From Armatimonadota bacterium (lineage in GTDB: Bacteria > Armatimonadota > UBA5829 > DSUL01): a stretch of DNA of 64,000 nucleotides. The notes beneath the pieces were generated by a model. The model searched no databases. It was not told the origin of the DNA and saw only the letters and a list, made by a program, of their open reading frames with translations. Made by a program: the position numbers and the translations under genes. The stretch covers positions 876,467-940,466 of the forward strand of contig AP024674.1 of assembly GCA_025998755.1 (NCBI GenBank). The letters are read 5' to 3'. Below are positions 3,501 to 52,075 of this stretch, piece by piece. Position 1 is the stretch's first letter. The number at the start of each line of letters is the position of its first letter.

Positions 3501-4220
3501 ATGGAAGTCGGTCAGAACGAAGGCATCTCCACAGGCCAGAAGCTGCGGAAGGCACGAGAGCAGAAGCAGCTTGCGCTTGAAGATATTGCACGACAGACCC
3601 GGATCCGCAAGGAGTTTCTTGAGGCGCTGGAAGAGGAGCGGCTGGACGCCTTTCCGGGCGCCGTGTATGCCCGGGCCTTCCTGCGGGAATACTCCGCCTT
3701 TCTGGGGCTGGACGGAGAGGATCTGGTGGCGTCCATGTTTCCTGAGAGCCAGCCCAAATCAGAAGGCTCCCCTGTTGCCTCTTCCTTTTCCCGCAAGAGC
3801 ACACCTGTGCCCCTGGTGGCGGTCGCGCTGTTAGCGGCTGCCGTGGTCGTCGGAGCGGTCTTGCTACGGCCGGCGCTCAATGTGGCGCCGTCTTCACCCC
3901 AAGTGGAGCCGGCACCGCAATCGCCGCCTGGAACTTGCGCTCCGTTGGATGTCGAAAGCAACGCCACAGTTAGCGGAGTCCGGCTGCGCATTCGCGCCGA
4001 GGCCCCATGCTGGATGCGCATCCAGTCTGGGGGACGGGTGCTCTATGAAGGCACTCTGCGCACCGGTGATTCGGTGCATTTCGCTTCACGCGAGGCCATC
4101 GTCCTGCTAGCCGGAAATGCGGGGGCTCTCCGTGTCCGGCACAACGAGGGAACTGAAGAGGTTCCGGGAAAATACGGTGAGGTCATCACGAGGGTCTTTG
4201 AACCGGCTAATGCCGATTGA
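3501..4220 (+). CDS. rodZ: RodZ-like cytoskeleton protein (HTH + TM + DUF4115-like domain)
   Basis: N-terminal XRE-type HTH (QKLRKAREQKQLALEDIARQTRI), one TM segment (PVPLVAVALLAAAVVVGAVLL), C-terminal beta-rich domain ending RVRHNEGTEEVPG. Confidence 0.6.
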   Translation: MEVGQNEGISTGQKLRKAREQKQLALEDIARQTRIRKEFLEALEEERLDAFPGAVYARAFLREYSAFLGLDGEDLVASMFPESQPKSEGSPVASSFSRKSTPVPLVAVALLAAAVVVGAVLLRPALNVAPSSPQVEPAPQSPPGTCAPLDVESNATVSGVRLRIRAEAPCWMRIQSGGRVLYEGTLRTGDSVHFASREAIVLLAGNAGALRVRHNEGTEEVPGKYGEVITRVFEPANAD

Positions 4221-7551: not shown

Positions 7552-7937
7552 CATGCAGGTGTCGAGCGGCCGGCGGGCGCGCAAAGCCGTGGCGATGCGC
7601 GTCTGCAGGAAAGTCCGGGCACCGCAGGGCAGGGTGCCGGATAACGTCCGGAGTGCCGGCGCTGACCGGCATATGGAAAGTGCCACAGAAAAGAAAACTC
7701 CCAAGGCAACCGGTTGCTGCCGGATTGCCCGGAAAAGCTGAAACGGTGGTGTAAGAGACCACCAGATCCGCCGAGAGGTGGATGCTGGGTAAACCCCACC
7801 CGGTGCAAGGCAGAGGAGGGCCCGCATTCCGTTGCCCGCGGGGGCTCTCCGACAGACGCCGCTTGAGCTCCGGCGCAAGCCGGAGTCCAGACAGATGGCC
7901 GCATAAAACAGAACCCGGCTTACGGACACCTGCTGAG
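7552..7937 (+). ncRNA. rnpB: RNase P RNA, bacterial type A
   Basis: Conserved blocks GGAAAGTCCGGGC, CAGGGTGCCGGATAACGTCCGG, GGGTAAACCCCACCCGGTGCAAGG, ACAGAACCCGGCTTAC; P1 pairing gcaggtgtc (7555-7563) with gacacctgc (7925-7933); ends approximate (+/- 5 nt). Confidence 0.85.
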
Positions 7938-9721: not shown

Positions 9722-10678
9722 GTGAAGGCCACCGGACTGGGGTGGCTGGGGCCCGTCGCCGGGTTGGCGGGTGTGTATCTGCTGTTCGCCCTGATCGGCC
9801 CGGAGTCGTTCCACTCAGCGCGCAACGTGGAGCAGATCCTCCGTCAAACCGCCATTGTCGGGGTGGCCGCGCTGGGGATGACGCTGGTAATCATCTCGGG
9901 TGGCATAGATCTCTCAGTGGGGTCTGTCATCGCGCTGACCACGGTGATCGTAGCGGCTCTGTTGGGGAAGGATGCTCCTCCAATCGCCGCGGCTGCCGTT
10001 GGTATTGTGGCGGCATCGCTCTGCGGTCTGCTTAACGGAGTGCTCATCGCCGGGCTGCGTGTGGTGCCATTCATTGTGACGCTGGGCACCCTGCTTGTAG
10101 TGCGCGGCGCAGCTAAAGGGCTGGCGGGCGAGCAGAAAATAGATGCCCCCCTCACCTGGCTGGCGGATCTGCTGGCTGCGCTACGGCCTGAGCAGAAGTG
10201 GATGCTGGTTCCTGCGGGCGTCTGGGTGATGCTGTTGCTCGCGCTGCTGGTCTCGCTGCTGCTCCGCCGTACCCGACTGGGCCGACATATCTTCGCCGTG
10301 GGCTCCAATGAGCTGGCTGCTCACCTCAGCGGCGTTCCGGTGGCAAGGGTGAAGGTGGCTGTCTATACCCTTGCCGCGGTATTCGCGGGAGCGGCTGGAG
10401 TATTGCAGTTTTCCCGCCTGACCGTGGGCGATCCCACGGTGGCGTCGGGGCTGGAGCTGGACGTCATCGCCGCGGTGGTCATAGGTGGAGGCAGCCTATC
10501 CGGTGGCGAAGGATCCGTCCTGGGCAGCATCGTGGGTGCCCTCATTATGACAGTAATCCGCAGCGGCTGCTCCCAGATGGGCCTGCCCAACTGGGTACAG
10601 GAGATCGTCACCGGCGGGATCATCGTCCTGGCCGTGGCGCTGGACCGCATGCGTCAGAGGCGGCTTGTACGAGCCTGA
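9722..10678 (+). CDS. sugar ABC transporter permease (RbsC-like)
   Basis: Multi-TM protein with RbsC-type N-terminus (FHSARNVEQILRQTAIVGVAALGMTLVIISGGIDLSVGSV); GTG start. Confidence 0.8.
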   Translation: MKATGLGWLGPVAGLAGVYLLFALIGPESFHSARNVEQILRQTAIVGVAALGMTLVIISGGIDLSVGSVIALTTVIVAALLGKDAPPIAAAAVGIVAASLCGLLNGVLIAGLRVVPFIVTLGTLLVVRGAAKGLAGEQKIDAPLTWLADLLAALRPEQKWMLVPAGVWVMLLLALLVSLLLRRTRLGRHIFAVGSNELAAHLSGVPVARVKVAVYTLAAVFAGAAGVLQFSRLTVGDPTVASGLELDVIAAVVIGGGSLSGGEGSVLGSIVGALIMTVIRSGCSQMGLPNWVQEIVTGGIIVLAVALDRMRQRRLVRA

Positions 10679-28891: not shown

Positions 28892-29719
28892 ATGGATGGC
28901 TGGCGTCCGGGGATTTCCGTTGAAAACTGGAGCGTCTGGGTTTCTTCCTGCCGTCCGGCTCGAGTTGTCGGCGCTCTTGCTGCGTTGCTTGTCCTTCTTG
29001 TTCCGGCGCCCCTTGAAAGGGGCGTCCTCCCTCCCGGAGTAGTTGAATCGCGCGTGCTCCTGCGACGGGCACAACTGCTGGAAGCGCGCCCACGTCGCCG
29101 GGCTTATCACCCGCCGCACGTTGTCAAGGTCTGGATGGTGGAGCACCGCGGCAGGGTTTTCCGGTGCATCCAGCTCCCGCGATGCGAGCACTTGGAGGCC
29201 ATCCTCTCGCTGGACTGGAACGGCCAGACGCTGGAACAGGCCAAAAAACGGCACGGAGGCGTAGCCGCGTGCACCGACGGCTTCATTCACAGCCGCAACC
29301 TTACTCCGGCGGATTTCCTCCAGACGAACGGCCGCCGCCTTTCGCGCGCGCTCACGGGGCGTTGGATGCTTGTCATCCAGCAGAGCGGGGCGCTGGACAT
29401 TCACGGCAACTATTTCCTGGTGAAGGGCAAGGAGGGTGTCACGGCCGCAGCCCTGGGCCAGAGGCTGGTGCCTCTCGCGTATGACGGTTTCTCCAAAGCG
29501 TTCATGAACCGGGTTACCGACAGGATGGGCATAGGCATGACGAATCATCACATCTTCATCGCCGCCGGCCGTTCAGATATCTGGCGCTTCTCGAAGCTTT
29601 TCAGTGAAGTGCTTCACTGTAAGGTGGCCATCAACACGGACGGCGGTCACGTGGTGCGGGGACGGTCGTCCACACACATCGTGTTCAGGTGGAAGAGTCC
29701 ACAGCCGATAACCAGGTGA
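28892..29719 (+). CDS. hypothetical protein
   Basis: Coding-like ORF whose antisense ORF is Arg-rich junk; no confident family (NTDGGH motif loosely reminiscent of phosphodiester glycosidases). Confidence 0.35.
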   Translation: MDGWRPGISVENWSVWVSSCRPARVVGALAALLVLLVPAPLERGVLPPGVVESRVLLRRAQLLEARPRRRAYHPPHVVKVWMVEHRGRVFRCIQLPRCEHLEAILSLDWNGQTLEQAKKRHGGVAACTDGFIHSRNLTPADFLQTNGRRLSRALTGRWMLVIQQSGALDIHGNYFLVKGKEGVTAAALGQRLVPLAYDGFSKAFMNRVTDRMGIGMTNHHIFIAAGRSDIWRFSKLFSEVLHCKVAINTDGGHVVRGRSSTHIVFRWKSPQPITR

Positions 29720-36473: not shown

Positions 36474-36549
36474 TGGTGGAGCTGAGCGGATTCGAACCGC
36501 CGACCTCTTCCGTGCGAAGGAAGCGCTCTCCCAACTGAGCCACAGCCCC
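36474..36549 (-). tRNA. tRNA-Ala (anticodon CGC)
   Basis: Reverse complement GGGGCTGTGGCTCAGTTGGGAGAGCGCTTCCTTCGCACGGAAGAGGTCGGCGGTTCGAATCCGCTCAGCTCCACCA folds as cloverleaf: G3:U70 Ala identity pair, anticodon loop TTCGCAC, T-loop TTCGAAT, encoded CCA. Confidence 0.9.
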
Positions 36550-38308: not shown

Positions 38309-39769
38309 TCATCCGAGGAACCGTCTGCGCAGAGCAGCCTGCAAAAGAAGATCGGCGACCTTGGCAGTCTGACCGGCTTCAAGCGACTCGCAGATCCTGC
38401 GCGTCAGCAGCACGTGCTCCTCGTCGGGCTCCCATTTCAGCCCGGCGTGCACGACTGCAGCCTGCAGATCCTGCGTCAGGAACGGGCTTTCCGGATCGGT
38501 GTAACGCAGCGCATCCGTCAGCTTCGCGCGGAACGAGGGATAGACGGAATCGAGGAACTCCAGATCCCGATCGCTTAACGACTCAAGTCCGAGGAGCTCC
38601 GGAGGGCAACCCAGGGAATACAGTGCGCAGGTGAAGGAGATGGCCCGCGGCAAGCTCACTCCGTCCAGTTCCCGCGCATATCCGAACAGTCCTATGTGGA
38701 GCTTGCGTGCCCGCCGTGGCGGAACGAATCTTGCTACCGCGTTAATGGACGGAGCAAGCTGGACGACCCGGCGGCGGTAAGCGCTGCTGTACGCCTGGAT
38801 GAGTGCCTGGGCGCGTCCCGGATCCACGGGAACGGGGGCTCCAATGGTTCTGTCTTTCAGAAAGGCGCAGGCTTGGCTTACCTCGGACACAGGATAATCG
38901 AACTTGAATGCTGACTGAATGGTGAAGGTCACCACGCTGGGATACTCCGCGCTGACGCGCTCCACCGTGCGCGGGCTAAGGCCGCCCCGGAACGGCGCTG
39001 AACCCATGCCTATGATAGGGCACAGGGGAATTCCTCTCTTCTGGCCAGTTTCATACAGTTGCTGCAGGGCCACCTTGTTGGCGAGCGCTGCGGCGGCCAG
39101 ACCGTAGTTCATCGCGGTGTCGGATCGCGCAAGGAACACCCGCTGATACTCCACATCCTTCCCGTCCAGATATTCCGTCAGGATTTCGCCGGCCCTGAGC
39201 ATTGTGGGAATGTCCTCAAACAGCGGGATGACATTGATTCGCGCCGGCCCAAAGTCACCGATCCACTGCGCCACCGTGATGTCCCCTTCTCGCACCGGCC
39301 TAAGCTGCCGCGCAATGATGAAGTCTTCGTAGTATTTGAAGACTCGGTTCAGGCAGCCAGCGGAGGTGGTCATAGGGAGGATCACCTCGAAGATCGGCGG
39401 TGGGGCGTCATCCCCGTAAAAGGCCCGGGCGGCGTCGAAAGACCGCGGAATGCTTTCCAGCGTCTCCAGGAGAATCTTGGCCTCGGCGCGCTCAACGGAC
39501 GGGTTCGGCACGCGAACAGTGAGCCGTAGATCCCGCCCCAGCACGTTCTGCCGGAAGAACTCCGGATAGAACGTGAGAAGTTTTTTCACCACGTGCGGGT
39601 CAATCTCTTTTCCCTCGACGTCCCACATCTGCTCATCGCAACCCAGATGCGAGTAGCAGTAGAACGCCTCGCGGATCTCGTCTTCTCCTGCCAGGACGGG
39701 GGAGGATGCGAAGAAGGGAACAGAAGCGTTATCGGGGTGTTGCGTGCTCATGCACCGCGAAACATTCAT
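38309..39769 (-). CDS. phosphoenolpyruvate carboxylase, archaeal type (PepcA-like)
   Basis: Hallmark N-terminus MSTQHPDN; ~500 aa; ATG 39769 preceded by ggag; ORF-track start 39832 treated as extension. Confidence 0.75.
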   Translation of the reverse strand: MNVSRCMSTQHPDNASVPFFASSPVLAGEDEIREAFYCYSHLGCDEQMWDVEGKEIDPHVVKKLLTFYPEFFRQNVLGRDLRLTVRVPNPSVERAEAKILLETLESIPRSFDAARAFYGDDAPPPIFEVILPMTTSAGCLNRVFKYYEDFIIARQLRPVREGDITVAQWIGDFGPARINVIPLFEDIPTMLRAGEILTEYLDGKDVEYQRVFLARSDTAMNYGLAAAALANKVALQQLYETGQKRGIPLCPIIGMGSAPFRGGLSPRTVERVSAEYPSVVTFTIQSAFKFDYPVSEVSQACAFLKDRTIGAPVPVDPGRAQALIQAYSSAYRRRVVQLAPSINAVARFVPPRRARKLHIGLFGYARELDGVSLPRAISFTCALYSLGCPPELLGLESLSDRDLEFLDSVYPSFRAKLTDALRYTDPESPFLTQDLQAAVVHAGLKWEPDEEHVLLTRRICESLEAGQTAKVADLLLQAALRRRFLG

Positions 39770-40062
39770 CGTGAACAATCTCCAGAAGGGGCGTGCGTAT
39801 TTGTGGCACCAGCGCAGTTCAGGGACGGTCAATCACGGCAGTATACCCCGAAAGAAAGCGTCCTGGTGTCCAGCGGAGAACCTGTCACCGGCGAAGCAGT
39901 GCACACCGGGGCAGGTTGTTGCGGCGTATGACGTGATTGAAATCCGCCCTTGCGAGCAGTGGAGGAGGAAGGCGGCTGGGCAGTGGAGGGCCCAAATTTG
40001 TGCTGGGGGACGAGCGAGGTAAGCTGATAGCCAAACTTTTTGAAATCCCTACGGAAAAAGTC

Positions 40063-40091
40063 TTGCGAGGCAGCAAAAGATATGTTACTCT
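40063..40091 (+). promoter_or_regulatory. candidate sigma70-type promoter of the glycan locus
   Basis: TTGCGA (40063-40068), 17-nt spacer, TACTCT (40086-40091), directly upstream of the palindromic operator. Confidence 0.3.
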
Positions 40092-40093
40092 GA

Positions 40094-40115
40094 GGTGTGG
40101 GAGCGCTCCCACACC
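40094..40115 (+). promoter_or_regulatory. perfect 22-bp palindrome, LacI-family operator candidate
   Basis: ggtgtgggagc|gctcccacacc; core GTGGGAGCGCTCCCAC resembles the symmetric lac operator TGTGAGCGCTCACA; half-site tgtgggagc repeated at 40117-40125; 30 nt upstream of the first gene of the locus. Confidence 0.45.
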
Positions 40116-40144
40116 CTTGTGGGAGCAGAGAAGGAGAGGGCCGT

Positions 40145-42958
40145 ATGCTCCGTGCTACGGCCCCGGAAGCGATGTGGCGTATTCTGCTGGTCGCCATAGT
40201 GGCAGCAGCGCCGTGCGGACCTCTAGCCGCCGCACTGCTGGCGAATGCCGGGTTCGAGGCCGGAGACGGAGCCACGCCTCCAGATCCCCTTTACTGGACA
40301 GAGTACGGTCCGGACCTGACCGGCGAACGCTCTTCTGTCTTCAAGCGCTTGGGAGGATGGGCGGCAAAGCGTTGGACGGGCGGCGACCATCAGGAGTACG
40401 GATATTATCAGGACTTCCCGGCGATCCCGGGCAGAGAGTATCGTCTTGCCGCCTGGCTTCACAGCCCGCCCTCGGACGCGCTGTCTGGCTCCAGCTATGC
40501 GTGTCTGAAACTCGAGTTCCTGTCACCAGGCGGCGCGATGCTGCTCCAACGGGAGAGCCTCCGTCTCACCTCATCCAACGCTGGGTTCGAGGAGTATCTG
40601 GTCACAGCGGTGGCACCTCCGGGGGCCACAAAAGGTCGGGTGGTCTACGCTGTAGGCGCGGGTGCCGCACCGCACGGCGGTGCGGCCTACTGCGACGACG
40701 TCACGCTCGAAGATCTGGGACCGCTGCCCACATCCGACGACGCGTTGCTGGAAGAGCTCCAGAAAAGGGCCTTCCGTTTCTTCTGGGACGAGGCAGGGCC
40801 GCTGGGGCTCATTAAAGACCGGGCAGGCAACTTCCGGCAAGACCGATACCAGCACTCCAGCATCGCATCCGTGGGATTTGGGCTGGCGGCGATCTGCGTG
40901 GCCGAGGGGCGGGGCTGGGTGTCACGGGAGCAGGCTCGTCAGCGCATCGCGCTGACGCTGGATACCCTGGCTACGAAGGTTCCCAGGCAGCACGGATTCT
41001 TGCCCCATTTCCTGGATGCACGAACCGGGCAGCCATCCCCGGGAACGGAATACTCCGCCATTGATACGGCAATCCTGCTCTACGGAGCGCTGTTTGCCGG
41101 GTCCTGGTTCGAGGATCGATACGGAGACGCTTCCATTCGGGAGGCGGCTGAGGCTCTGTACCACGCAGTCCAATGGCCTGTTCTGCATTCGGGCAGCACC
41201 GTTTACAGCGAATACTGGATGATGGATCTGCTGGCCATCGGCTCGCCAACATATCCGCTCCCGCCCTCCGTGTGGAACGCGTTCAGCCGCAACTTCCAGG
41301 ACAATCTGGCCACGCGCCCGGCCGACCGGTCATATCCCAGGTTTTTCTACCCGGTGCTGTTTGTGCACCAGTATCCGCAGCTTTTCCTGGATATGCGGTT
41401 CCGGCGCGACGTCCATACTGTGGACTTGACCTATTTCGAGAGCACCCGGAACCACACTTTTTCGAACAGGCAGTACTGCATTGATCACTCCGTGTCCGCC
41501 GGGTTTGCGCATCCCCGCTTCCAGACCTACTCGGAGCATTGTTGGGGACTGACCGCCGGGGATGGCCCGGACGGATACCGGGACTATGGCGAGGCGCTTC
41601 CCTGGCTGCCGGAGCCGCAGAGCACCTGGCTTCTGGACGGGACCGTCCTGCCGCACGCCGCCGGTGGGTCTGTGGCCTTCGCTCCAGAGGTCTGTATCCC
41701 TGCGCTGCGCCGGATGGCGCAGACATATGGACACCGCATCTGGGGGCGTTACGGTTTTTCGGATGCCTTCAACGTGGACCGGAACTGGTGGGCGGAAGAT
41801 GTCATCGGTATAGACCTGGGCGCCATATTCCTGAGCATCGAGAACTATCGCAGTGGCGGCATCTGGCGGTGGACGATGCGAATCCCAGCCATCCGCCGCG
41901 CGCTGGCGCGGACGGGGTTCGTCGACGAGCGGCAGGCCGCGGTGGAGGATTTCGACTCCGCACCTCTTGGGGTCTGGGGATCCGGTTGCGAGAGCGATTG
42001 GGGAACGGGACACCTGTCATATGAGGAAATCGGGAGCACAGGCCAACTGCCAGGCGGCCGCGTTGCACGAATAACGGCGAGTGTGGCTGGAGGCGGAGCT
42101 GGAATCTGTCTTGGGTCGCTGGATTTGACCTACGCTGACGTCTTGAGCTTCTTCATCCGCGGGCAACGGGGTGGGGAGCGCATCACTCTGGTGCTGCGCG
42201 ATTGCGATGGACGGGAATCTGCCGTTGCGCTGACGGAGGAGCACCTATGGCAGCGCAGCATAGGCACGGACTGGCAGACTGTTTCTGTGCCGCTCAGCGC
42301 TTTCGACGGCATCCGCAGACCGTGCGCAGAGCGGCTGGCATTCCTGCTGCAGGAACCGGGGTCGGTCTGGGTTGACGGAGTGGCGTTCACCGGTGCGCAT
42401 CCAGATGCTCCGGCCGTGCCACTCCCCAGTCCCGGTTATGTGCGCAACCTTCCTCCCGGAGTATCTGTCACTCTCGAAAACCTTGTCGTAACGGACGACT
42501 TCGGAGCGTTTTTCTACGCCGCTCGGCCGGATCGCGCATCAGGAATACGCATTCAGCCGGGCGGCGGCTTCACGCCGGGGGAGCGCATTTCAGTCCGTGG
42601 AACCGTGGGGAGTGCAGATGAGGAGCCGGCGGTCTTCGCGACAGCGGTCTCCCGGCAGGGCAGGGTGTTGCCCCTTGAGCCGGTCGGGATGAAGTTGGCT
42701 GGTATAGGCAATAACCGCCCCGATCCCCTGGGACTGCGGGTTCGCTCCTGGGGTCAGGTGTCCGGTCTCGAACAGGATGGATTCCGTCTCCGGGACGGTT
42801 CCGGACGGGAGCTGGCGGTCGTCGCGCCCTCTCTTCCGAAGCCGGCTCCCGGAGCATTTGTCATTGTCACAGGTGTCGCGGGGCGCCGGGTTGCAGCGCA
42901 GGGTCCCCAACCGGTGCTGCGAATCCGGTCTCCGTGGGACATTGAGGTAGTGCAGTAG
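40145..42958 (+). CDS. secreted multi-domain glycoside hydrolase: N-terminal carbohydrate-binding module + (alpha/alpha)6 GH144/DUF3131-like catalytic domain (putative endo-beta-1,2-glucanase)
   Basis: Signal peptide (WRILLVAIVAAAPCGPLAAALLA); CBM4/9-like segment (NAGFEAGDG...YCDDVTLE); catalytic-domain motifs HGFLPHFLD and YGFSDAFNVDRNWWAEDVIGIDLGAIFLSIENYRSGG; ATG 40145 preceded by aaggagagg. Confidence 0.65.
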   Translation: MLRATAPEAMWRILLVAIVAAAPCGPLAAALLANAGFEAGDGATPPDPLYWTEYGPDLTGERSSVFKRLGGWAAKRWTGGDHQEYGYYQDFPAIPGREYRLAAWLHSPPSDALSGSSYACLKLEFLSPGGAMLLQRESLRLTSSNAGFEEYLVTAVAPPGATKGRVVYAVGAGAAPHGGAAYCDDVTLEDLGPLPTSDDALLEELQKRAFRFFWDEAGPLGLIKDRAGNFRQDRYQHSSIASVGFGLAAICVAEGRGWVSREQARQRIALTLDTLATKVPRQHGFLPHFLDARTGQPSPGTEYSAIDTAILLYGALFAGSWFEDRYGDASIREAAEALYHAVQWPVLHSGSTVYSEYWMMDLLAIGSPTYPLPPSVWNAFSRNFQDNLATRPADRSYPRFFYPVLFVHQYPQLFLDMRFRRDVHTVDLTYFESTRNHTFSNRQYCIDHSVSAGFAHPRFQTYSEHCWGLTAGDGPDGYRDYGEALPWLPEPQSTWLLDGTVLPHAAGGSVAFAPEVCIPALRRMAQTYGHRIWGRYGFSDAFNVDRNWWAEDVIGIDLGAIFLSIENYRSGGIWRWTMRIPAIRRALARTGFVDERQAAVEDFDSAPLGVWGSGCESDWGTGHLSYEEIGSTGQLPGGRVARITASVAGGGAGICLGSLDLTYADVLSFFIRGQRGGERITLVLRDCDGRESAVALTEEHLWQRSIGTDWQTVSVPLSAFDGIRRPCAERLAFLLQEPGSVWVDGVAFTGAHPDAPAVPLPSPGYVRNLPPGVSVTLENLVVTDDFGAFFYAARPDRASGIRIQPGGGFTPGERISVRGTVGSADEEPAVFATAVSRQGRVLPLEPVGMKLAGIGNNRPDPLGLRVRSWGQVSGLEQDGFRLRDGSGRELAVVAPSLPKPAPGAFVIVTGVAGRRVAAQGPQPVLRIRSPWDIEVVQ

Positions 42959-43014
42959 GCTTGGTGTGCTACGGCGCTCGTGCGTGCGCACCTTGCAGAA
43001 AGGAGAGGATGCTG

Positions 43015-44695
43015 ATGAGGAGCTGCAAAGGGCTTATCTGGATGACGCTGCTGGCGCTGGCAGTCTCCCTGCCTGCGGCGGCTGAGAATCTGTTGCTGAA
43101 CCCCAGCTTCGAAGTGGATCCGGTGGAAGACGGGCTGGCGGCCGGCTGGGCGAAGTATCGCTCTGGCGATGGCATTGATGGCTGGCTGAAGCCGTGGTCC
43201 GGCCCGGAGAACGACTGGGTGGCTGTCATTGGCCAATGGCAGCCCGGGCAGTGGGCGTTCTGGGGACAGAGTGCGCCCTGCGTTCCCGGCCGGATCGTCA
43301 CCTTCCGGGCCTGGAGCGGCGGCTTCCCCGGGTTCAACGGCTCCACGAAGGTGAAGCTGGAGTTCTACTATCCGAACCAGGAAGGGGGCACGATGGCCAT
43401 CTCCACGCCGGAGAGCTCATCCATCACGGGACCGCACGGGTGGCGTTTGCAGGAGGTGTCCGTGGTGGTCCCTCCACAGGCCATCCGGGTGCGCGCGATG
43501 CTCTGGGTGGACGGAGCTCCATCAGCACCGGCCAGCGGAAGCGCCAAGTTCGATGACGCCTGGCTGGAGACAGACGGGATCCCGCCGCGAGTGACTCCCG
43601 GCGAGGTCAACGGGCTCCCGGACAACACTCTGGTATGGCTGAAGTGGCCGGTTGTGGTGAAGGACAACGGAAGCGACGAAACCCGCACCGACTGCTACGT
43701 GACGGGATACGGCCGCGAGGGTACCTGCAGGGTGGTATCGTCGAATCCCATTCTCAGCAACGGGGGTACCGGTTGCGGTCCGACCGGGTGTTATGCTCCA
43801 CGTGCTTGGCACCGTTCAAACGGTGAACGGCGAAAAACGCGTGAACGCCATAGACATCGTTCCCACCAACTGGGACGGGCCGTGGCCCAGGCAGATCGGC
43901 ATGACATCCAAGTCCATGGCACTCCCACCGAACCCGTCCGGGCAGATTGTCCGGCTCGTCGGAAACGTCAGCAGCACGACTCCCGACAAGAGCTTTGTCT
44001 ATGTGGATGACGGGGCGAACGTGCCGGGCGAGGCTGGGTACACCGGTGTCAGGGTTCCCTATCCGGGCAGTCCAGATGACTATCCGGCCATCGGAGACAC
44101 AGTCGCAGCTACCGGTGTGCTTTGGCTGGAGCCAGGAGCTGGCGGACAGCGTTATCCCGTTCTGTATACCCGCCGCGCCACGGATTTCAGCATCATCAAC
44201 ATTGGCAGCGGGGGCATCGGGCGCAACCTCCTGCTGAATCCCGGCTTCGAAGAAGGTCCTGCGAACTGGGAGCGATCACCTCAGAGCGTGGCCCCGGAGC
44301 GCTGGGCGGCCCGTTCCGGAAGCTGGGGCATGGCGTTCTACGCGTGGGATACCTACGAGCAGGTCTTTGTCGGCCAGAGGGTGCGCAACATCGTGCCCGG
44401 AGCCTCTTACTCCTTCAGCGCCTACATCCTGAAGGAGGTCAACCACGTGGGCAACGTGGTTATGGAGGTTCACTGGTTCGATGCGGACGGTAACGAGATT
44501 CTCCCTGCGGTAGAAGTCCCTGCCGCCGCGGGCACCACTTGGCAGCAGTTCACTGTACCGGTTGTCGCCCCGGCCGGGGCCGCCGAGGGGAGTTTCGTAA
44601 TCCGGAACGTGGATCACGAACCTGCTCCGCCGCCCGGGCAGCTTCAGGCAGTGATGATTGACGACGTGGTGGTGAAGATGACCGCCACGCCCTGA
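43015..44695 (+). CDS. secreted protein with two CBM4/9-like carbohydrate-binding modules (apparent frameshift at G5 run 43762-43766)
   Basis: Signal peptide (LIWMTLLALAVSLPAAA); NLLLNPSFEVDPVEDG and NLLLNPGFEEGPANWE module starts; reading frame changes near cgggggtacc. ORF track shows 42961..44010 and 43793..44695. Confidence 0.5.
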
Positions 44696-44863
44696 TCAGT
44701 GTTGGAAAAGCTTCGGGAAGCGCGCCGTGGTCAGCTACAACGTTCGCGGCGCGCCTCCCGGGAAGATCGGCGAGTTATTCGCCGGAACAGCAGAAGCAGA
44801 CCTTCCGGAGCGTTGCAGCGCTCAGGGAGCTGCAAGTCTCAACGAGACAAGGAGGAAAGACAG

Positions 44864-45628
44864 ATGGGTAAGTGGTTCTGGCTCTGCTCGCTGGCACTGG
44901 TCCTTGGTGTCAGTTGCGCGGCGAACGCTTACGGGCCGGTCAGCTCCATTGATTCGGCCAAGGTCTATCAGTACGTGTGGCAGGACGATCCGGACTCCAC
45001 TCTGACGGTGGTGAACAACTATCCGTCCTATATCAGCTTCCGCGATGAGAACCTGGACGGCGACGGTCAGGGCGGGGAGTATGCCAACCGGCACGTCTGG
45101 AGGTTCTCCGCGGACGGTGGGTCAACTCCTTTCGAGTTCGGCAACACCACCTATTTCGAGTACTTCGTGGACGTGAAGGTGCAGGGCGACCCCACGACGG
45201 GGAAGCATCACGAAGCGGGCATCTTCTTCGACTATCGAGGCTGGGACGGCGTTCTGATGGTGAAGACCAACGGAGAGATCGCCGCCTTCGGCTATGTCCT
45301 TCCGTTTTATGCCTTCTTGGATCCGTACACCCCCGGCGACTGGATCCGTATCGGGGTGAAGTATTTCCAGGATCCCGGAGACGGCAAGAACAAGATCCGG
45401 TATTACGCGGGCTCCGCGCAGAGCCCCGCTCTGGCATTCGGAAACCTGGAGGGGGGCATCATTGACGGAACGACCATCGGGGGCTACGGACAGTTCCAGA
45501 TCGCTCCCGGGGTCCAGTCCAACTTCGGCATGGCGGAGTGGGGCAACATTCACATTGTGCCGGAACCGGCGTCGCTTCTGGTGCTGGCCGCCGGCGTGGC
45601 AGGCATGGCCCTGCGCCGCAGGCGCTAG
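44864..45628 (+). CDS. PEP-CTERM sorting domain protein (exosortase substrate)
   Basis: Signal peptide (WFWLCSLALVLGVSCAANA) and C-terminal VPEPASLLVLAAGVAGMALRRRR (PEP motif, TM helix, Arg cluster); aaggagg RBS. Confidence 0.7.
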   Translation: MGKWFWLCSLALVLGVSCAANAYGPVSSIDSAKVYQYVWQDDPDSTLTVVNNYPSYISFRDENLDGDGQGGEYANRHVWRFSADGGSTPFEFGNTTYFEYFVDVKVQGDPTTGKHHEAGIFFDYRGWDGVLMVKTNGEIAAFGYVLPFYAFLDPYTPGDWIRIGVKYFQDPGDGKNKIRYYAGSAQSPALAFGNLEGGIIDGTTIGGYGQFQIAPGVQSNFGMAEWGNIHIVPEPASLLVLAAGVAGMALRRRR

Positions 45629-45793
45629 TGCTCCGGCAGGGGGGACGGCCGGTCCCGTCCGACCGTCCCTCCTGAACGCCCGGCGCCGTTCAGGAATGCC
45701 GCCACTGCTCCACGACCGCCCCTGCGAAGCTGAGACGCCTCTGGCAACCGTCCGGGATGAGGACGGTTGCAGATCACAGGCGGAGGCTCAACA

Positions 45794-46483
45794 ATGAACC
45801 GCAAGGCATTCACGCTTATTGAACTGCTGGTGGTGATCGCCATCATCGCGATCCTGGCTGCCATCCTGTTCCCGGTTTTCACCCGGGCCCGAGAGAGCAG
45901 CAAAAGGTCGGCCTGTCTGTCCAACTGCAAGCAGCTCGCTTCTGCAATGCAGATGTACATTGATGACTGGAAAGGCCGCTTCCCGTCGTTCACGTATAGT
46001 GAGCAGTGGAAGCAGCTGGAGCCGCAGAATATCGTCTCCTACACAAAGAGCGAAGATGTCTTTCACTGCCCTGGCGCTACGGATATCAATAGCGCCCGGG
46101 TTCCGCCGCGAAACGCCAGCGAAAACTGGAAGAACTACTTCGGCCGGAATATGGGCAGCCCGGCTCAGTGGAAGTGGACGGACTACAAGATGATGGACAA
46201 CGGGTATCTGCCAGGAATGAGCGCCTCTGAAGTGCGCTCGCCCGTGTGGCTGGTGGTCTGTATTGACAACACGGACTGGTGGCCGCGGCATCCACGAGGC
46301 ACGGCTGCGAAAAATTACAACGATGGAGGGAGCAATCTGGCGTTCCTGGACGGACACGCGGCGTATTTTCCGAAGGAACGCTACAACGACGGCAACAAGC
46401 GATCCGGTCCCGATGTGGACGACGCAGGAGCCACTCCTTTCTGGAACTGGGGGCTTCCCCGGGATTACTGGATTCCGGAATGA
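45794..46483 (+). CDS. prepilin-type N-terminal cleavage/methylation domain protein (DUF1559-like)
   Basis: N-terminus [29 protein letters not shown]; C-terminal [15 protein letters not shown] (H-X9-DG-like); ggagg RBS. Confidence 0.8.
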
Positions 46484-47772
46484 TCCCTGTGCTGTTGGCA
46501 TTGATGCTCGCGGGAACCGCCGCGGCGGGAGGCGAGCTGCGAGATGACCGCAGCTACCTGATCCAGGTTGCTCGCGAGACGTGGCGCTACTTTGAAGAGT
46601 GCCGCGACCCGGTATCCGGCCTGGTCTGGGATCACTGCGGGGAGACTGGCGCTGAAGGTCGGGGAGAGTATACCAGCCCCACGAATATCGCCCTAGACCT
46701 CACCTCGACGCTTGCGGCGATGGACCTCGGCATCATCACGCGGCAGCAGGCACAGGAGCGCATCGAAACGATTGTCGGCACACTTCAAAAGCTGGATCGG
46801 TACCGGGGGTTTTTCTTCAATTTTTATGAAACTGCCACGCTGAAGCCGACAGTACGCTTCCTTTCTTTTGTGGACAACGGCTGGCTGACCCTGGCGCTTC
46901 TGGCCGTCCGGCAGGAGTTTCCGGGAGATATGGGGGAGCGGGCCACCGCCATATTGAACAGCCAGGACTATGCATTCTTTTATGACCGGAAGGCCGGTTT
47001 GATGTATCACGGGTTCCATACGGATCGCAGGGGGATCCGCTACGGCCACTATGCTATCTTTTGCTCCGAACCCCGGGCGGCATCGCTTCTGGCCATCTCT
47101 CGCGGCGATGTGCCGGTGGAGCACTGGTTCCGGATGGAGAGAGCGCGTCCGGCCGAGGGGAAGGATTACAGGAAAGGAGAGATGCGCCGTTACTGCGGCG
47201 TCGACGTCCAGGAGAGCTACTTCGTCTACCGCGGTGTGCCCGTTGTGCCCAGCTGGGGCGGAAGCATGTTCGAGTTTTTGATGCCATCCCTGTTCATTGA
47301 CGAGTCCAGGTATGCGCGCACCAGTCTGGCCGAAAACAATCGCCGCGCCGTAGATGCGCAGATTGCGTTTGCCGCGGAGAGGGGAATGCCTGCCTGGGGA
47401 CTGTCGCCGTGCGCCAATCCGGCTGGCGGATATGGAGAGTACGGCGCTGCACCCATCGGGGTACAGGGGTATGCAGAGGGCGTAGTGACCCCGCACGCCT
47501 CGTTTCTGGCACTGGAGATCCGCCCTGCAGAGTCGCTGGCCAACATCCGGAAAATGGAACAGCTGTATGCCATCCGTGGTCACTACGGGTTCCGGGACTC
47601 TGTGGACACGTCTTCCGGCCGGGTAGCCAGTGTGTATCTGGCGCTTGACCAGGGCATGATCCTCACCGCCATCGGCAACTATCTGACGGGCGGCTCGATC
47701 CGCCGGCGCGTTATGCGGGATCCATCCATGAAGAAGGCTACCAGGATTCTTGCAATGGAGCGCTTTTTCTGA
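46480..47772 (+). CDS. secreted GH144/DUF3131-like (alpha/alpha)6 glycoside hydrolase, second copy
   Basis: Signal peptide ([18 protein letters not shown]); motifs SFVDNGWL and YGFRDSVD...[21 protein letters not shown] paralogous to the 40145..42958 catalytic domain; start overlaps upstream stop (ATGA). Confidence 0.65.
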
Positions 47773-47791
47773 AGGAAATGGGGCAAGGAAA

Positions 47792-48853
47792 GTGGCTGCT
47801 TCCAGAACACCACCGAACATCTTCGACGTGGCCCGTCGGGCGGGGGTTTCCAAGTCCACGGTTTCGCGCGTTCTGAACGGGTCGGATCGCGTGAGCGAAG
47901 CCTCCCGACAGGCGGTTCTCCGGGCAATGGAAGACCTCGGCTTTCGGCCGAACAGCGCCGCCAGGCGTCTTGCAGGCTCGGCGGACCGGCGCATTGGTCT
48001 GTTGCTGCCTTTTTTCGGAAGCATGTTCTCATCCTTTTACGTGTATGAGATCATCCGTGGGGTGGGTCAGGTGGTTTCGGAACGCGATACGGAACTGCTG
48101 CTCCATTTTCAGCACGAAGACCGCAATGGACATAACCTCCGGCGGCGTTTGACAGCCAATGGTGCGCTTGGCGGATGGGTCATCGCAGATGAAATGGTGG
48201 ACGACGGGCTACTGGAAGAGGTTCGCGAGGCTGGAATCCCCTTTGTGTTGCTGAACAGAGAGTCCTCCGTTCCGTGGTCTTCCTGGGCCACAGTGGATAA
48301 CCGGGGCGCCGCAGAGGCAGTTGTGGAATATCTCGTTTCTCTCGGACACACGTTTATCGCCACGCTGACTGGTCCGCTTCACCAGCCTCCCGCCCGGGAG
48401 CGCCTGGAAGGCTTCCAAGCGGCGATGGCTGCGCGGGGTCTTGAGGTTCCGGATGGTTGGGTGGCCCGCTGCGACTTTCAGCGGCAGCTGGCAGCGGAAG
48501 AGACAGTCAGAATGCTTCGAGAACGTCCCCGTCCGACGGCTATCTTTGCGGCGTCGGACCTGATGGCCGCCGGCGCATATGAGGCTGCCTCGTCGCTTGG
48601 GTTGCGGATCCCGGAGGATCTCTCGGTGGTGGGCTTCGACGACGACTTCATTGCGGCTCAGTTGATTCCCCGCCTGACTACGGTCCGCCAGCCCCTCCAG
48701 GATGCGGCGCGGGCGGCCACATCCTGGTTGCTGGATCATCTGGAAGAAAGAAACGGACAACCGCTACGTGTGAGATTGCCGGCTTTTCTGGTGGAACGCG
48801 ACTCCTGTGCGCCGCCCTCCCGGGCGGACAACAGCAAGGGGAGCAGACCATGA
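47792..48853 (+). CDS. LacI-family transcriptional regulator
   Basis: N-terminal HTH NIFDVARRAGVSKSTVSRVLNG plus periplasmic-binding-like sugar-binding domain; GTG 47792 chosen, TTG 47750 possible. Confidence 0.8.
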   Translation: MAASRTPPNIFDVARRAGVSKSTVSRVLNGSDRVSEASRQAVLRAMEDLGFRPNSAARRLAGSADRRIGLLLPFFGSMFSSFYVYEIIRGVGQVVSERDTELLLHFQHEDRNGHNLRRRLTANGALGGWVIADEMVDDGLLEEVREAGIPFVLLNRESSVPWSSWATVDNRGAAEAVVEYLVSLGHTFIATLTGPLHQPPARERLEGFQAAMAARGLEVPDGWVARCDFQRQLAAEETVRMLRERPRPTAIFAASDLMAAGAYEAASSLGLRIPEDLSVVGFDDDFIAAQLIPRLTTVRQPLQDAARAATSWLLDHLEERNGQPLRVRLPAFLVERDSCAPPSRADNSKGSRP

Positions 48854-51243
48854 ACGCCGCGGTCGCGGGGAGGTTGAGTGCAGCCGGGCGGACCCGCTTC
48901 GGTCATTTCTCGGAAGACGGCAGGGAATTCGTCATCCGCCGGCCAGACACTCCGCGGCCCTGGGTGAACGTTCTGTGCAACGACGATCCGGGATACGGGT
49001 GCATTTGGAGCCAGGCGGGAGGTGGTTATAGCTGGCTGGTCAACGCGGAGTTGAACCGGATCACCTTCTGGCAGCAGGACCTGATCCGGGATGACCGTGG
49101 GCGTTTTATCTATCTGCAGGATGCCCGGACCGGCGAGCTCTGGTCGGCCGGGTACCAGCCTGTCCGGCGGAAGCCCGAAGCCTTCGAATGCCGCCATGGG
49201 GCGGGCTACTCCGTCCTTAGCTCCCAGAACTCGGGCGTTCTCAGCCGGTTGACGGTCTTTGTGCCGCCGGCAGCGCCGCTGGAGGTCTGGCTGCTGGAGG
49301 TTGCAAACTTCTCGGGAGCCCCGCGCGATATCCTGGTTACCAGCTATCTGGAATGGTGCCTGGGCACAGCGCACGACACTCACCGGGAGTTCCATCGCAT
49401 CTTCATAGAAACGGAGTTCATCCGAGAACGCAGCGCCATCTTGGCGCGCAAGCGTCTGTGGGCCATCCCAAACGCCCTGGGCCAGGGATGGAACCGCAAC
49501 TGGGAGGGAACGGCATTTCACGCTTGCTCCCTACCCGTCGCCGCGTTCGAGTGCGACCGGGAGGTGTTTGTCGGGAGATACGGTTCTCTGGAATCGCCTG
49601 CCGCTTTGACTAACGGGCGGATGGCGGGGACCAGCGGACGATGGGGGGATCCCATCGCATCCCTTCAGGCCCCCCTCCGCTTGGGACCGGGTGAGTCGGC
49701 GGAGTTGGTCTTCGTTCTGGGCGCAGCCAATAGCGACGCAGTTGCGTTGTCTCTGGCGGAGCAGTACTGCAACGTCAAGCGTGCGGCCGAGGCGCTCCGC
49801 GAAACTCAGCTATGGTGGAGAAACCGTCTGGATGGCTACTCGGCCGAGACCCCGGACCCGGGACTGAATGCTCTGCTTAATACTTGGCTCCGCTATCAGG
49901 CCATGGCGGGGCGCCTCTGGGGGCGCAGCGGATACTATCAACCGGGCGGGGCATACGGCTTCCGTGATCAGCTACAAGACAGCCTGGTCTTCCTGCCGAC
50001 AGAGCCGGATCGGACCCGCCGTCAGATCCTGCTGCACGCGGCACACCAGTTCTCTGCCGGGCACGTGTTCCACTGGTGGCAGCCGATCGCCGAGTCCGGC
50101 GCGCACAGCAGGTTTTCAGACGATCTCCTCTGGCTACCGTTTGCGGTGCTGGCCTATATCCGGGAGACCGGCGACACGGCCATCCTGAATTTTCAAGCGC
50201 CTTTTGTGGACGGCCCTTCGGATACCATCCGGAACCACTGCGAGCGCGCGCTCGATCTGGCCCTGTCCCGAAGGAGTCCCCGTGGCCTGCCGCTCATGGG
50301 CGAGGGGGACTGGAACGATGGCCTTTCGGCGGTCGGCTGGGAGGGTAAAGGCGAATCGGTATGGGTGGGACATTTTCTGTGCTATCTCCTTCCGCGCTGG
50401 GCGGAGCTGGCCAGGACCGTGGGTGACGGCGAGCGCGCGGCACAGTACCTGCAGGCGGCCCAAGACCTGCAGGCTGCCATCAACAGGTGGGCCTGGGACG
50501 GCCAGTGGTATTTCCGGGCGACCTGCGACGATGGGACGGTGATCGGCGGCAGTGCGTGCAATGAAGGCCAGATATTCCTGAACGCTCAAACATGGTCGAT
50601 CATCGCCGGGGTCTGCCCTCCCGAGCGCCGTAGGCAACTTATGCGGACGGTCCGGGACCGGCTCTATACGGCAGCCGGGCCGGTGCTGCTCCGTCCGGCA
50701 TACACCGTGCCGGATGAACGGATTGGATACCTCACCCGTTACGCTCCCGGGGTGCGGGAGAACGGGGGTGTGTATCTCCACGCGGCAACGTGGGCGATCT
50801 GGGCCGAGTGCCTGCTCGGCCGCGCAGAGCAAGCCTGGAGACTTGTTCAGAGCATCTCTCCTTGCATTCGTGCACTGGACGCTGAACTGTACCGCGCCGA
50901 GCCATACGTAACGCCCGGGAACATCGATGGCCCGGACTCGCCGCACTTCGGGCGCGGGGGGTGGACGTGGTACACCGGATCGGCCGCCTGGCTGTTCCGG
51001 GTGGTTGCGGAGTGGTTGCTGGGAGTCCGTCCCGCCAGGGAAGGACTGCGAGTTGCCCCCTGCATCCCTGAGGACTGGGACGGTTTTCGGGTGTACCGTC
51101 GCTTCCGTGGAGCGGGCTACCAGATCGCTGTTTCCAGAAATGGTGAGGGGGGGAAGCTTATGGTGGACGGCCGCCCTGTTGCAGGGGACATTGTGCCAGC
51201 ATTCCACGACGGGAAAGACCATCAGGTCGAACTCCTGTTGTAG
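48850..51243 (+). CDS. glycoside hydrolase family 94 phosphorylase (cellobiose/oligoglucan phosphorylase type)
   Basis: N-terminus FGHFSEDGREFVIRRPDTPRPWVNVLCND typical of GH94; 797 aa; start overlaps LacI stop. Confidence 0.8.
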   Translation: MNAAVAGRLSAAGRTRFGHFSEDGREFVIRRPDTPRPWVNVLCNDDPGYGCIWSQAGGGYSWLVNAELNRITFWQQDLIRDDRGRFIYLQDARTGELWSAGYQPVRRKPEAFECRHGAGYSVLSSQNSGVLSRLTVFVPPAAPLEVWLLEVANFSGAPRDILVTSYLEWCLGTAHDTHREFHRIFIETEFIRERSAILARKRLWAIPNALGQGWNRNWEGTAFHACSLPVAAFECDREVFVGRYGSLESPAALTNGRMAGTSGRWGDPIASLQAPLRLGPGESAELVFVLGAANSDAVALSLAEQYCNVKRAAEALRETQLWWRNRLDGYSAETPDPGLNALLNTWLRYQAMAGRLWGRSGYYQPGGAYGFRDQLQDSLVFLPTEPDRTRRQILLHAAHQFSAGHVFHWWQPIAESGAHSRFSDDLLWLPFAVLAYIRETGDTAILNFQAPFVDGPSDTIRNHCERALDLALSRRSPRGLPLMGEGDWNDGLSAVGWEGKGESVWVGHFLCYLLPRWAELARTVGDGERAAQYLQAAQDLQAAINRWAWDGQWYFRATCDDGTVIGGSACNEGQIFLNAQTWSIIAGVCPPERRRQLMRTVRDRLYTAAGPVLLRPAYTVPDERIGYLTRYAPGVRENGGVYLHAATWAIWAECLLGRAEQAWRLVQSISPCIRALDAELYRAEPYVTPGNIDGPDSPHFGRGGWTWYTGSAAWLFRVVAEWLLGVRPAREGLRVAPCIPEDWDGFRVYRRFRGAGYQIAVSRNGEGGKLMVDGRPVAGDIVPAFHDGKDHQVELLL

Positions 51244-51288: not shown

Positions 51289-51318
51289 TTGACGGGGCTT
51301 CCGCCTTCGCCCTATAAT
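51289..51318 (+). promoter_or_regulatory. near-consensus sigma70 promoter
   Basis: TTGACG (51289-51294), 18-nt spacer, TATAAT (51313-51318); about 55 nt upstream of the 51377 start with gggaggagaagggg RBS. Confidence 0.45.
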
Positions 51319-51376
51319 CTCGCCGCCGGCTGCGGCCCAAAGGCTGCGATTGAGACCGGGAGGAGAAGGGGCTGAA

Positions 51377-52075
51377 ATGAACCTTAAGACTGCGAAGCGC
51401 GCAGGGCTGAGCCTGGCGCTGCTCATCCTCGTATGCGAAGCTGCTGTGGCATACAGCATCGTGAACGTGCCCACTGCCAACCAGGCGGCTTTGCGGGAAG
51501 TTAACCTTGCCTACTACAGCATGTCTGTGGACAGGCTGCCGGTCACGCACAAGGACATCATCATTATCTACTCCACGGTAGCGCCGAACCTCGAGGTGGA
51601 GTACTTCCACATCAATATCAACAAGGGGGCTCCCTCGCAGAATCTGGTGAACGCCAGCTACAGGTTGGTGAGCGAAACGGCGCAGATCCCGGACGTAGTG
51701 GTGGGCGCCAAGAATATCTTCGAGGACGACCACTCGCCCAATCCCGATGAGCAGAAGCGCTCCTATTACATCGCCACCGCAAAGACCCTGAACCCGCCGA
51801 AGCCGGGAGCCGCCTGGCAGCCCGTGGTGCGTCTGCACGTGAACTACGGCACCCGGGAGCACAGGGGACTGTTCGGTGGTGTCCAGATCGCGGTCACGCC
51901 GCAGCTGGGGATCGCGGCAATGAAGTTCTCCAGCTCACCCTATGTGGACACCTTTTTCGGCAACTCGATGGAATATGCCGTCGTTTACTCGCTCGGGAAA
52001 GGGCGTCCCACGCTGAAGGCGGGCACTCTGGGCCGCCACGAATGGGTGGGACTGGATTACAGCATCTTCTTCTGA
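51377..52075 (+). CDS. hypothetical exported protein, possible outer-membrane beta-barrel
   Basis: Signal peptide (LSLALLILVCEAAVA), alternating beta-strand-like pattern, C-terminal aromatic residues (YSIFF). Confidence 0.5.
   Translation: MNLKTAKRAGLSLALLILVCEAAVAYSIVNVPTANQAALREVNLAYYSMSVDRLPVTHKDIIIIYSTVAPNLEVEYFHININKGAPSQNLVNASYRLVSETAQIPDVVVGAKNIFEDDHSPNPDEQKRSYYIATAKTLNPPKPGAAWQPVVRLHVNYGTREHRGLFGGVQIAVTPQLGIAAMKFSSSPYVDTFFGNSMEYAVVYSLGKGRPTLKAGTLGRHEWVGLDYSIFF

Follow-up and report, generated by a model that had tools for sequence, protein, structure and literature searches.

What is the role of a perfect palindrome upstream of a glycan-utilisation gene string in an uncultivated Armatimonadota genome, and which protein is likely to read it? 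The DNA analysed here (64,000 nucleotides, referred to as the window) is from Armatimonadota bacterium, GenBank assembly GCA_025998755.1, contig AP024674.1, positions 876,467 to 940,466. The palindrome lies at 40094-40115 of the window, before a string of genes that begins with a secreted beta-1,2-glucanase-like protein (PF10091) and ends with a GH94 glycoside phosphorylase. An earlier note had likened it to the symmetric lac operator and had placed a LacI-family gene about 7.7 kb downstream in the same string; this gene is indeed found at 47792-48853 (Pfam LacI and Peripla_BP_3). A repressor of the LacI/GalR family very likely uses the palindrome as its operator, and the best candidate is the protein encoded at 47792-48853 (probability approximately 0.85). 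The earlier proposal of a lac-operator-like site for the local LacI protein is thus supported, as far as sequence comparison can do so, by a phylogenetic footprint, by identity with the actinobacterial CebR/CelR box and by covariation between recognition helices and operators.

The palindrome and its conservation

The elements at the site are as follows.

40094..40115, no strand: palindrome GGTGTGGGAGCGCTCCCACACC, unique, the longest perfect palindrome of the window
40098..40111, no strand: putative operator core TGGGAGCGCTCCCA (14 bp), identical to the CebR/CelR box
40096-40113: extended core TGTGGGAGCGCTCCCACA, the form kept in close relatives
40118..40126, + strand: third half-site TGTGGGAGC, a direct repeat that begins 22 bp after the first half-site
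40062..40068, + strand: predicted -35, CTTGCGA, of which CTTGC is invariant in six lineages (alignment A4)
40083..40091, + strand: predicted extended -10, TGtTACTCT, with TGnTAnnnT invariant in six lineages

GGTGTGGGAGCGCTCCCACACC (in the context 40090-40129, ctgaGGTGTGGGAGCGCTCCCACACCcttgtgggagcaga) has 11-nt arms and a CpG at its centre, and every base of 40094-40115 pairs, so the description of this 22-bp sequence as fully self-complementary was accurate. It is the sole match to itself within the 64-kb window, even with three mismatches allowed, and none of 100 dinucleotide shuffles contained a match. Arms of at least 11 nt were found in 5 of 300 first-order Markov shuffles. Occurrence at many unrelated positions, which the earlier note had named as an argument against an operator, is not seen inside the window, where there is a single copy. 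Degenerate copies of the motif (one to three mismatches) were also sought in the window to widen the regulon, but their counts are those of chance; the best of them, at 29079, is the only one with two mismatches and lies within a coding open reading frame (ORF).

The site was compared across nine lineages, namely the window and eight others with the same gene order, which were drawn from contigs carrying LacI orthologues and from a metagenome scan with the first gene. TGGGAGCGCTCCCA is present, exactly, 5' of the first gene in all nine (11 sites with no mismatches), and no other exact copy occurs in the nine orthologous loci. The sites, their distances to the conserved start and the identity of the first-gene protein to that of the window are:

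Window: 14-mer at 40098, 74 nt to the conserved start
L006/L136: 14-mer at 2320, 74 nt; first-gene protein identity 89%
L002/L139: 14-mer at 2306, 74 nt; identity 76%
L137: 14-mer at 9927, 74 nt; identity 76%
L138/L141: 14-mer at 9925, 76 nt; identity 75%
L140: 14-mer at 3881, 78 nt; identity 70%
L010/L142: 14-mers at 2998 and 3137 (139 bp apart), 378 and 239 nt; identity 51%
L014: 14-mer at 113, 104 nt; identity 52%
L015: 14-mers at 1943 and 2078 (135 bp apart), 193 and 58 nt; identity 50%

In alignment A4, which contains the six alignable lineages, 16 columns in a row are invariant (TGTGGGAGCGCTCCCA). No longer invariant stretch exists in the region, and within the close group the DNA flanking these columns varies. 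The outer GG/CC of the window 22-mer is lineage-specific. Because the 14-mer alone is kept across all lineages, the predicted functional unit is the 14-bp core (18 bp in the close group) and not the full 22 bp. A conserved core of 14-18 bp with dyad symmetry and a central CpG agrees with the form of LacI/GalR operators (dyad-symmetric, 14-20 bp, central CpG). The LacI gene is found within the same string in every locus long enough to reach it; these orthologues are 54-93% identical, while the next homologues are at most 42% identical. No second operator was found at up to two mismatches before the internal genes or the GH94 gene, including the 178-nt gap in L010. The box pairs of L010 and L015, 139 and 135 bp apart, are separated by about 13 helical turns, a spacing that recalls looping systems.

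The earlier note had also pointed to an extra half-site, and an exact copy of TGTGGGAGC does follow the palindrome at 40118-40126. TGTGGGAGC has three exact copies in the window, all inside 40096-40126 (both arms of the palindrome and this one). The 22 bp between the starts of the first and third half-sites correspond to two helical turns, and the same offset is found in L006 and L002. The third half-site is degraded in L137 (TAGGAG), L138 (CGGGAGC, offset 23) and L140, and is absent from L010, L014 and L015. It may at most be an auxiliary contact or a decaying element. An intrinsic terminator or attenuator was considered for the palindrome and rejected: no T-run follows it and a terminator scan finds nothing at the site.

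The -35/-10 pair proposed in the earlier note (TTGCGA at 40063-40068, a 17-nt spacer and TACTCT at 40086-40091) is present and its key letters are invariant, but it falls below the consensus threshold. A consensus promoter scan called nothing at the site, and the promoter is therefore assigned by conservation: the invariant letters of alignment A4 that lie 5' of the operator are CTTGC and T.TG.TA...T. In the six close lineages, 4-6 nt separate the core from the conserved extended -10 that precedes it. L014 has a canonical promoter (TTGCAT-17-TACAAT) that ends 3 nt before the core, and the two sites of L010 flank a TTGACG-17-TAAAAT promoter. The end of the window -10 at 40091 predicts a transcription start close to 40098, where the operator core begins. 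Directly 5' of the -35 in the window and in the L002 and L006 lineages is a conserved A/T-rich block (40033-40060; AAACTTTTTGAAA ... GGAAAAAG), of which the more divergent L138 and L140 retain only an AAAA run beside the -35. This block may be UP-element-like or the site of another factor.

The distance of 30 nt between the palindrome and the first gene, given in the earlier note, requires correction. The conserved start is the ATG at 40172, 56 nt past the palindrome. The in-frame ATG at 40145 (29 nt past the palindrome) is not conserved, as relatives have GTG there, and in L002 an indel breaks the frame between the position matching 40145 and the conserved ATG. The first gene therefore probably starts at 40172. 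Between the operator and this ATG is a second conserved inverted repeat (40138-40163, GGGCCGT...ACGGCCC), whose stem is retained in L002 and L006 despite a different loop and which shows one compensatory pair. It could be a hairpin of the 5' untranslated region (UTR) or a second protein site.

The regulator and the CebR/CelR box

The 14-mer TGGGAGCGCTCCCA appears in nine published papers, found by full-text search, as the CebR-binding site. It is the 14-bp cbs consensus, and CebR binding to it was demonstrated by electrophoretic mobility shift assay and is relieved by cellobiose (PMC4358012). The same palindrome is the CelR site of Thermobifida fusca, where a perfect site lies 5' of the operon that includes celR, and it is found in many other actinobacteria upstream of cellulase genes and cellobiose-transporter operons (PMC3377646). 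When the 16-mer GTGGGAGCGCTCCCAC was compared with 185,579 species genomes, at least 120 loci were found; the matches listed include 107 from Actinomycetota, mostly Streptomyces, and none from Armatimonadota. In a control locus, Streptomyces soliscabiei (L027), the site is flanked on one side by a binding-protein/permease operon and on the other by a LacI gene. Three Chloroflexota loci (L084, L091 and L096) carry the box beside a LacI gene and an ATP-binding cassette (ABC) sugar transporter. Among the papers listed by a literature search, none treated CebR-type regulation in Armatimonadota or Chloroflexi. As judged from its sequence, the closest relative of the window site is the CebR/CelR box rather than the lac operator. 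Two archaeal (Halorubrum) genomes also contain the 16-mer (L082, 1816-1831; L099, core at 2748) in similar ORF arrangements; these copies are probably conserved coding sequence and not operators.

No LacI-family gene other than that at 47792-48853 lies in the window. The product of 47792-48853 has a helix-turn-helix (HTH) region GVSKSTVSRVLNG and the hinge NSAARRLAG (region IFDVARRAGVSKSTVSRVLNG...PNSAARRLAG), with a leucine at the position of LacI Leu56. P0132, a record of 353 aa, is identical to the regulator from the GTG start. A LacI-family gene with intact HTH and hinge thus lies within the genes that would be controlled, as expected for a LacI/GalR operator, and this arrangement is syntenic. 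The deposited model of the protein, BCW97939.1, has 308 aa, begins at Met46 (MEDLGF...) and lacks the entire HTH; cloning from this entry would yield a protein unable to bind DNA. Among solved structures the regulator is most similar to 5ysz_A (172.6 bits), which has a CebR-class HTH, followed by CcpA (166 bits). We take 5ysz to be T. fusca CelR with cellobiose.

The specificity pair of the recognition helix is K-S in all nine orthologues, which have GVSKSTVSRV throughout. The corresponding pair is R-G in the box-adjacent actinobacterial regulators (CebR-type helix GVGRGTVSRV), R-S in those of Chloroflexota (GVSRSTVSRV) and Y-Q in E. coli LacI. Helices and operators were also compared in homologues outside the orthologous group:

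P0093 (S-K-S-T), L146: GTGGGAACGTTCCCAC, 12 nt before the P0093 start
P0062 (S-K-S-S), L145: TTGGGAGCGTTCCCAA and TTGGGAGCGTTACCAA
P0018 (S-R-S-T; LacI with ABC and GH94 genes), L144: TTGGAAGCGTTCTCAA, right after TTGACA-17-TATAAT
P0013 (S-Y-S-T), L147: TTGCAAACGCTTGCAA, two copies
P0030 (S-Y-S-T), L148: TTGCAAGCGCTTGCAA and ATGCAAGCGCTTGCAA

Lysine or arginine at the first position of the recognition helix is found with TGGGA-type palindromes and tyrosine with TGCAA-type palindromes. The operators of the two classes differ at base pairs 4-5 from the dyad, and the proteins differ in the first two residues of the recognition helix. In LacI, Tyr17, Gln18 and Arg22 contact the lac operator and control specificity. 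Lehming et al. (1990) reportedly found that base pairs 4-5 are read by the first pair of residues in the recognition helix. Because a basic residue pairs with TGGGA half-sites, reading of the palindrome by the local S-K-S-T protein fits this pattern. The covariation is in addition a small data point for the recognition rules of the LacI family. The Tyr-helix homologues are of Anaerolineae type and have paired TTGCAA(A/G)CGCTTGCAA operators 5' of LacI-ABC-GH3 operons (L147, 5853 and 5970; L148, 5858 and 5962); for the Arg-type homologue of L144, whose TTGGAAGCGTTCTCAA comes right after a consensus promoter, the positions are 5637 and 5921.

Proposed model and alternatives

The genes that the site could control, and their upstream neighbour, are as follows.

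38309-39832, - strand: archaeal-type phosphoenolpyruvate (PEP) carboxylase gene, divergent, upstream of the site
40172..42958, + strand: first gene, secreted PF10091 (beta-1,2-glucanase-like) protein with a CBM30-like domain (Pfam Glycoamylase, 9e-57)
43015..44695, + strand: second gene, no family; an ORF of 559-561 aa in relatives, frameshifted in the window
44699..45628 (ORF bounds), + strand: PEP-CTERM protein gene (Pfam PEP-CTERM)
45767..46483, + strand: pilin-like gene; methylation motif at the N-terminus and DUF1559-like region (Pfam N_methyl, SBP_bac_10)
46480..47772, + strand: second PF10091/DUF3131 glycoside-hydrolase-like gene (start as called on L001, an identical contig)
47792..48853, + strand: LacI-family regulator, GTG start, 353 aa (Pfam LacI and Peripla_BP_3)
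48850..51243, + strand: GH94 glycoside phosphorylase, end of the string (Pfam)

The proposed circuit would operate in the following way. A repressor dimer would set one HTH into each TGGGAGC half-site, and the leucine of its hinge helix would lie at the central CpG; a dimer is expected because the regulator does not have the C-terminal tetramerisation helix of LacI. As the 14-18 bp core begins 4-6 nt past the predicted extended -10, the bound dimer would cover the transcription start, as LacI does at O1, and initiation would be blocked. The blocked unit would be the eight-gene string 40172-51243, from the first PF10091 gene to the GH94 phosphorylase. A small beta-glucoside released from the substrate would bind the sugar-binding domain and release the repressor. 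The enzymes of the string suggest that this inducer would be sophorose or a short beta-1,2-gluco-oligosaccharide, with cellobiose as another candidate. Because the repressor gene sits inside the operon, the circuit would be negatively autoregulated, as in the celR operon of T. fusca.

Several points weigh against this model. The regulator is, over its full length, only 36-39% identical to the box-adjacent actinobacterial regulators. In a rough neighbour-joining tree without support values the helix classes form coherent blocks, but the Armatimonadota clade is neither nested in nor clearly sister to the CebR block. Given this low identity and the lack of grouping in the tree, identity of the operator is not proof of CebR orthology, and the effector cannot be transferred from CebR. 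The -35/-10 pair is weak (7/12) and is missed by the consensus scan. Internal promoters could lie in gaps of approximately 140 nt within the string, and that one site governs the eight genes is therefore a presumption. That the local LacI protein binds, where transcription starts, that the string is one transcription unit and what the inducer is are all inferred from sequence. Finally, the window represents 64 kb of a 3.29-Mb genome, and the site could instead be bound by a LacI paralogue that shares this helix and comes from another part of the genome.

This last point leads to the alternative that survives best, in which the palindrome is a LacI-type operator read by a regulator encoded elsewhere, such as a true CebR/CelR orthologue, and the local LacI protein binds another sequence. 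An operator identical to the CebR box, beside a regulator that is not clearly a CebR orthologue, is what this alternative would predict. However, each of the lineages examined has both the site and the local LacI gene, no further palindrome of TGGGA type is conserved in the orthologous loci, and a second LacI gene was not found in the window. Lys/Arg helices also go with TGGGA-type sites in unrelated loci. A distant regulator is therefore considered improbable, and the protein encoded at 47792-48853 is preferred.

A slightly less probable alternative is that the palindrome acts mainly in the 5' UTR as an RNA hairpin, formed either between its two arms or between the right arm and the third half-site, with an effect on mRNA stability or translation. 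Such a role is conceivable for a site that folds well and is probably transcribed in part: a start near 40098 would put most of the palindrome in the transcript, the single-sequence fold contains a 9-bp hairpin, the consensus fold of three relatives pairs GCUCCCACA with UGUGGGAGC over a 4-nt loop, and a second conserved hairpin follows at 40138-40163. Nevertheless, the covariation term is zero, the helix between the right arm and the third half-site has no compensatory pair (the sole compensatory pair lies in the downstream hairpin), and the fold z-score is -1.8. The third half-site, on which the alternative hairpin depends, decays in L137, L138 and L140. Distant lineages keep the sequence of the 14-mer and not merely its pairing, and one of the two L010 copies is upstream of the predicted promoter. 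There is no T-run, and an Rfam scan of the window has no match at the site. With no covariation in the palindrome helix and a weak z-score, RNA structure was rejected as the main function. Arms of 11 nt or more do arise in about 1.7% of Markov-shuffled 64-kb windows, but a chance palindrome or generic repeat without regulatory function can be dismissed on its uniqueness, the shuffle tests and its conservation, as a sequence with a single copy in the window that is perfect at the orthologous position in nine lineages and equals an experimentally bound operator.

A repressor-operator pair at this locus provides a testable regulatory model for the glycan-utilisation operon of an uncultivated Armatimonadota genome, and for a locus of beta-1,2-glucan type it names a cis-element, a probable repressor and the class to which the inducer is likely to belong. 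To our knowledge, regulation of the beta-1,2-glucan pathway is essentially unstudied. It can be proposed, although only tentatively, that one box-reading LacI lineage has kept the 14-bp operator across Actinomycetota, Chloroflexota and Armatimonadota while its effector and targets were rewired, and that it senses sophorose or beta-1,2-gluco-oligosaccharides here. If such sensing were true, no repressor-operator pair would, as far as we know, have been defined earlier for the catabolism of beta-1,2-glucan, and this one would offer a ready-made orthogonal sugar switch from a lineage that may be thermophilic.

The first and last enzymes of the string suggest beta-1,2-linked glucans as the substrate. 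The best solved relatives of the first-gene product are 4gl3, XcSGL (8xul) and the GH144 endo-beta-1,2-glucanase 5gzh; XcSGL is among the cloned beta-1,2-glucanases (PMC12102758). The GH94 product is identical to BCW97940.1; its top-scoring solved relative is cyclic beta-1,2-glucan synthase (GH94 domain, 539 bits), and cellobiose phosphorylase follows at 475 bits. The second gene product matched no Pfam family. Comparison with the L002 and L006 orthologues (tblastn) shows that this gene is split across two frames (residues 1-249 and 245-560) with a junction at about 43748-43761; either the gene is truly frameshifted (a pseudogene) or the metagenome-assembled genome was misassembled here. The PEP-CTERM orthologues have 249-261 aa, and this gene probably starts later than the ORF bound at 44699. 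A near-consensus sigma-70-type promoter (TTGACG-18-TATAAT, 11/12) lies at 51289-51318, between the GH94 gene and the next gene; because this strong promoter-like site precedes the next gene, the string probably stops at 51243. The ORF that follows (51350-52075, 241 aa) has no Pfam family.

On the upstream side, a PARG-like gene (PF05028) is present between the PEP carboxylase gene and the operon in L002 (1218-2234) and L006 (1236-2249). The equivalent part of the window (39833-40171) is a 340-bp intergenic region only, and a PARG homologue is found nowhere in the 64 kb. The Rfam scan also identified a bacterial class A RNase P RNA (7555-7937, + strand, 225 bits) and a tRNA gene (36477-36549, - strand).

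Comparison with known systems

The window site shares with the systems of CebR in Streptomyces reticuli, S. griseus and S. scabies and of CelR in T. fusca an identical 14-bp operator (an exact match to the consensus at 40098-40111), a LacI-family repressor encoded beside or inside the operon that it would control, beta-glucan catabolic targets, and a basic residue followed by a small one in the recognition helix (R-G there, K-S here). The differences are also clear. The known systems belong to Actinomycetota and this one to Armatimonadota, the helix is S-K-S-T here and G-R-G-T there, and in the closest relatives of the window an extra direct half-site lies 22 bp downstream. A CebR/CelR regulon typically includes a cebEFG transporter, a beta-glucosidase and/or cellulases, and the string does not have this composition: its targets are PF10091 beta-1,2-glucanase-like enzymes and a GH94 phosphorylase, without a cebEFG-type transporter or cellulases, and the Pfam survey of the string found no ABC transporter, no recognisable sugar transporter and no cellulase family. 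Published work regards the CebR/CelR box as a signal for cellulase genes of actinobacteria. Here it occurs outside that phylum with other beta-glucan genes, which matters when cellulolytic regulons in metagenomes are predicted from this motif.

The resemblance to the lac operator holds in part. The core is identical to the symmetric operator TGTGAGCGCTCACA at 12 of 14 positions, but one base in each half-site differs (TGGGAGC here, TGTGAGC in lac), such that base pair 5 is G instead of T. Dyad symmetry, the GAGCGCTC centre and the central CpG are shared with Osym and O1, as are the TVSRV helix and hinge leucine of the predicted binder. The lac site overlaps the transcription start, and the window site would do so at its predicted start. 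The helix pair is K-S here and Y-Q in LacI, and the 353-aa protein is without the C-terminal tetramerisation helix of LacI. A lac operator in the strict sense was rejected on the half-site and the helix pair.

In Listeria innocua, the LacI-family gene lin1838 lies in a 1,2-beta-oligoglucan phosphorylase cluster, and its role in regulation was only speculated upon (PMC3960220). Both loci combine a LacI-family gene with a GH94 phosphorylase, and the Listeria cluster is thought to metabolise beta-1,2-glucan or sophoro-oligosaccharides (PMC3960220). It differs in having an ABC transporter and a GH3 enzyme, and no operator was described for it (PMC3960220); the two are likened here by description only. 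L010 and L015, with two perfect boxes each, resemble the dual-operator systems lac O1/O3 and gal OE/OI, and the L010 pair flanks the predicted promoter. The window differs from these in having one full operator and a half-site, and looping would require higher-order oligomers. The site points to no new mechanism and is very probably a switch of a known kind; the phylum and the genes that it would control are what is new.

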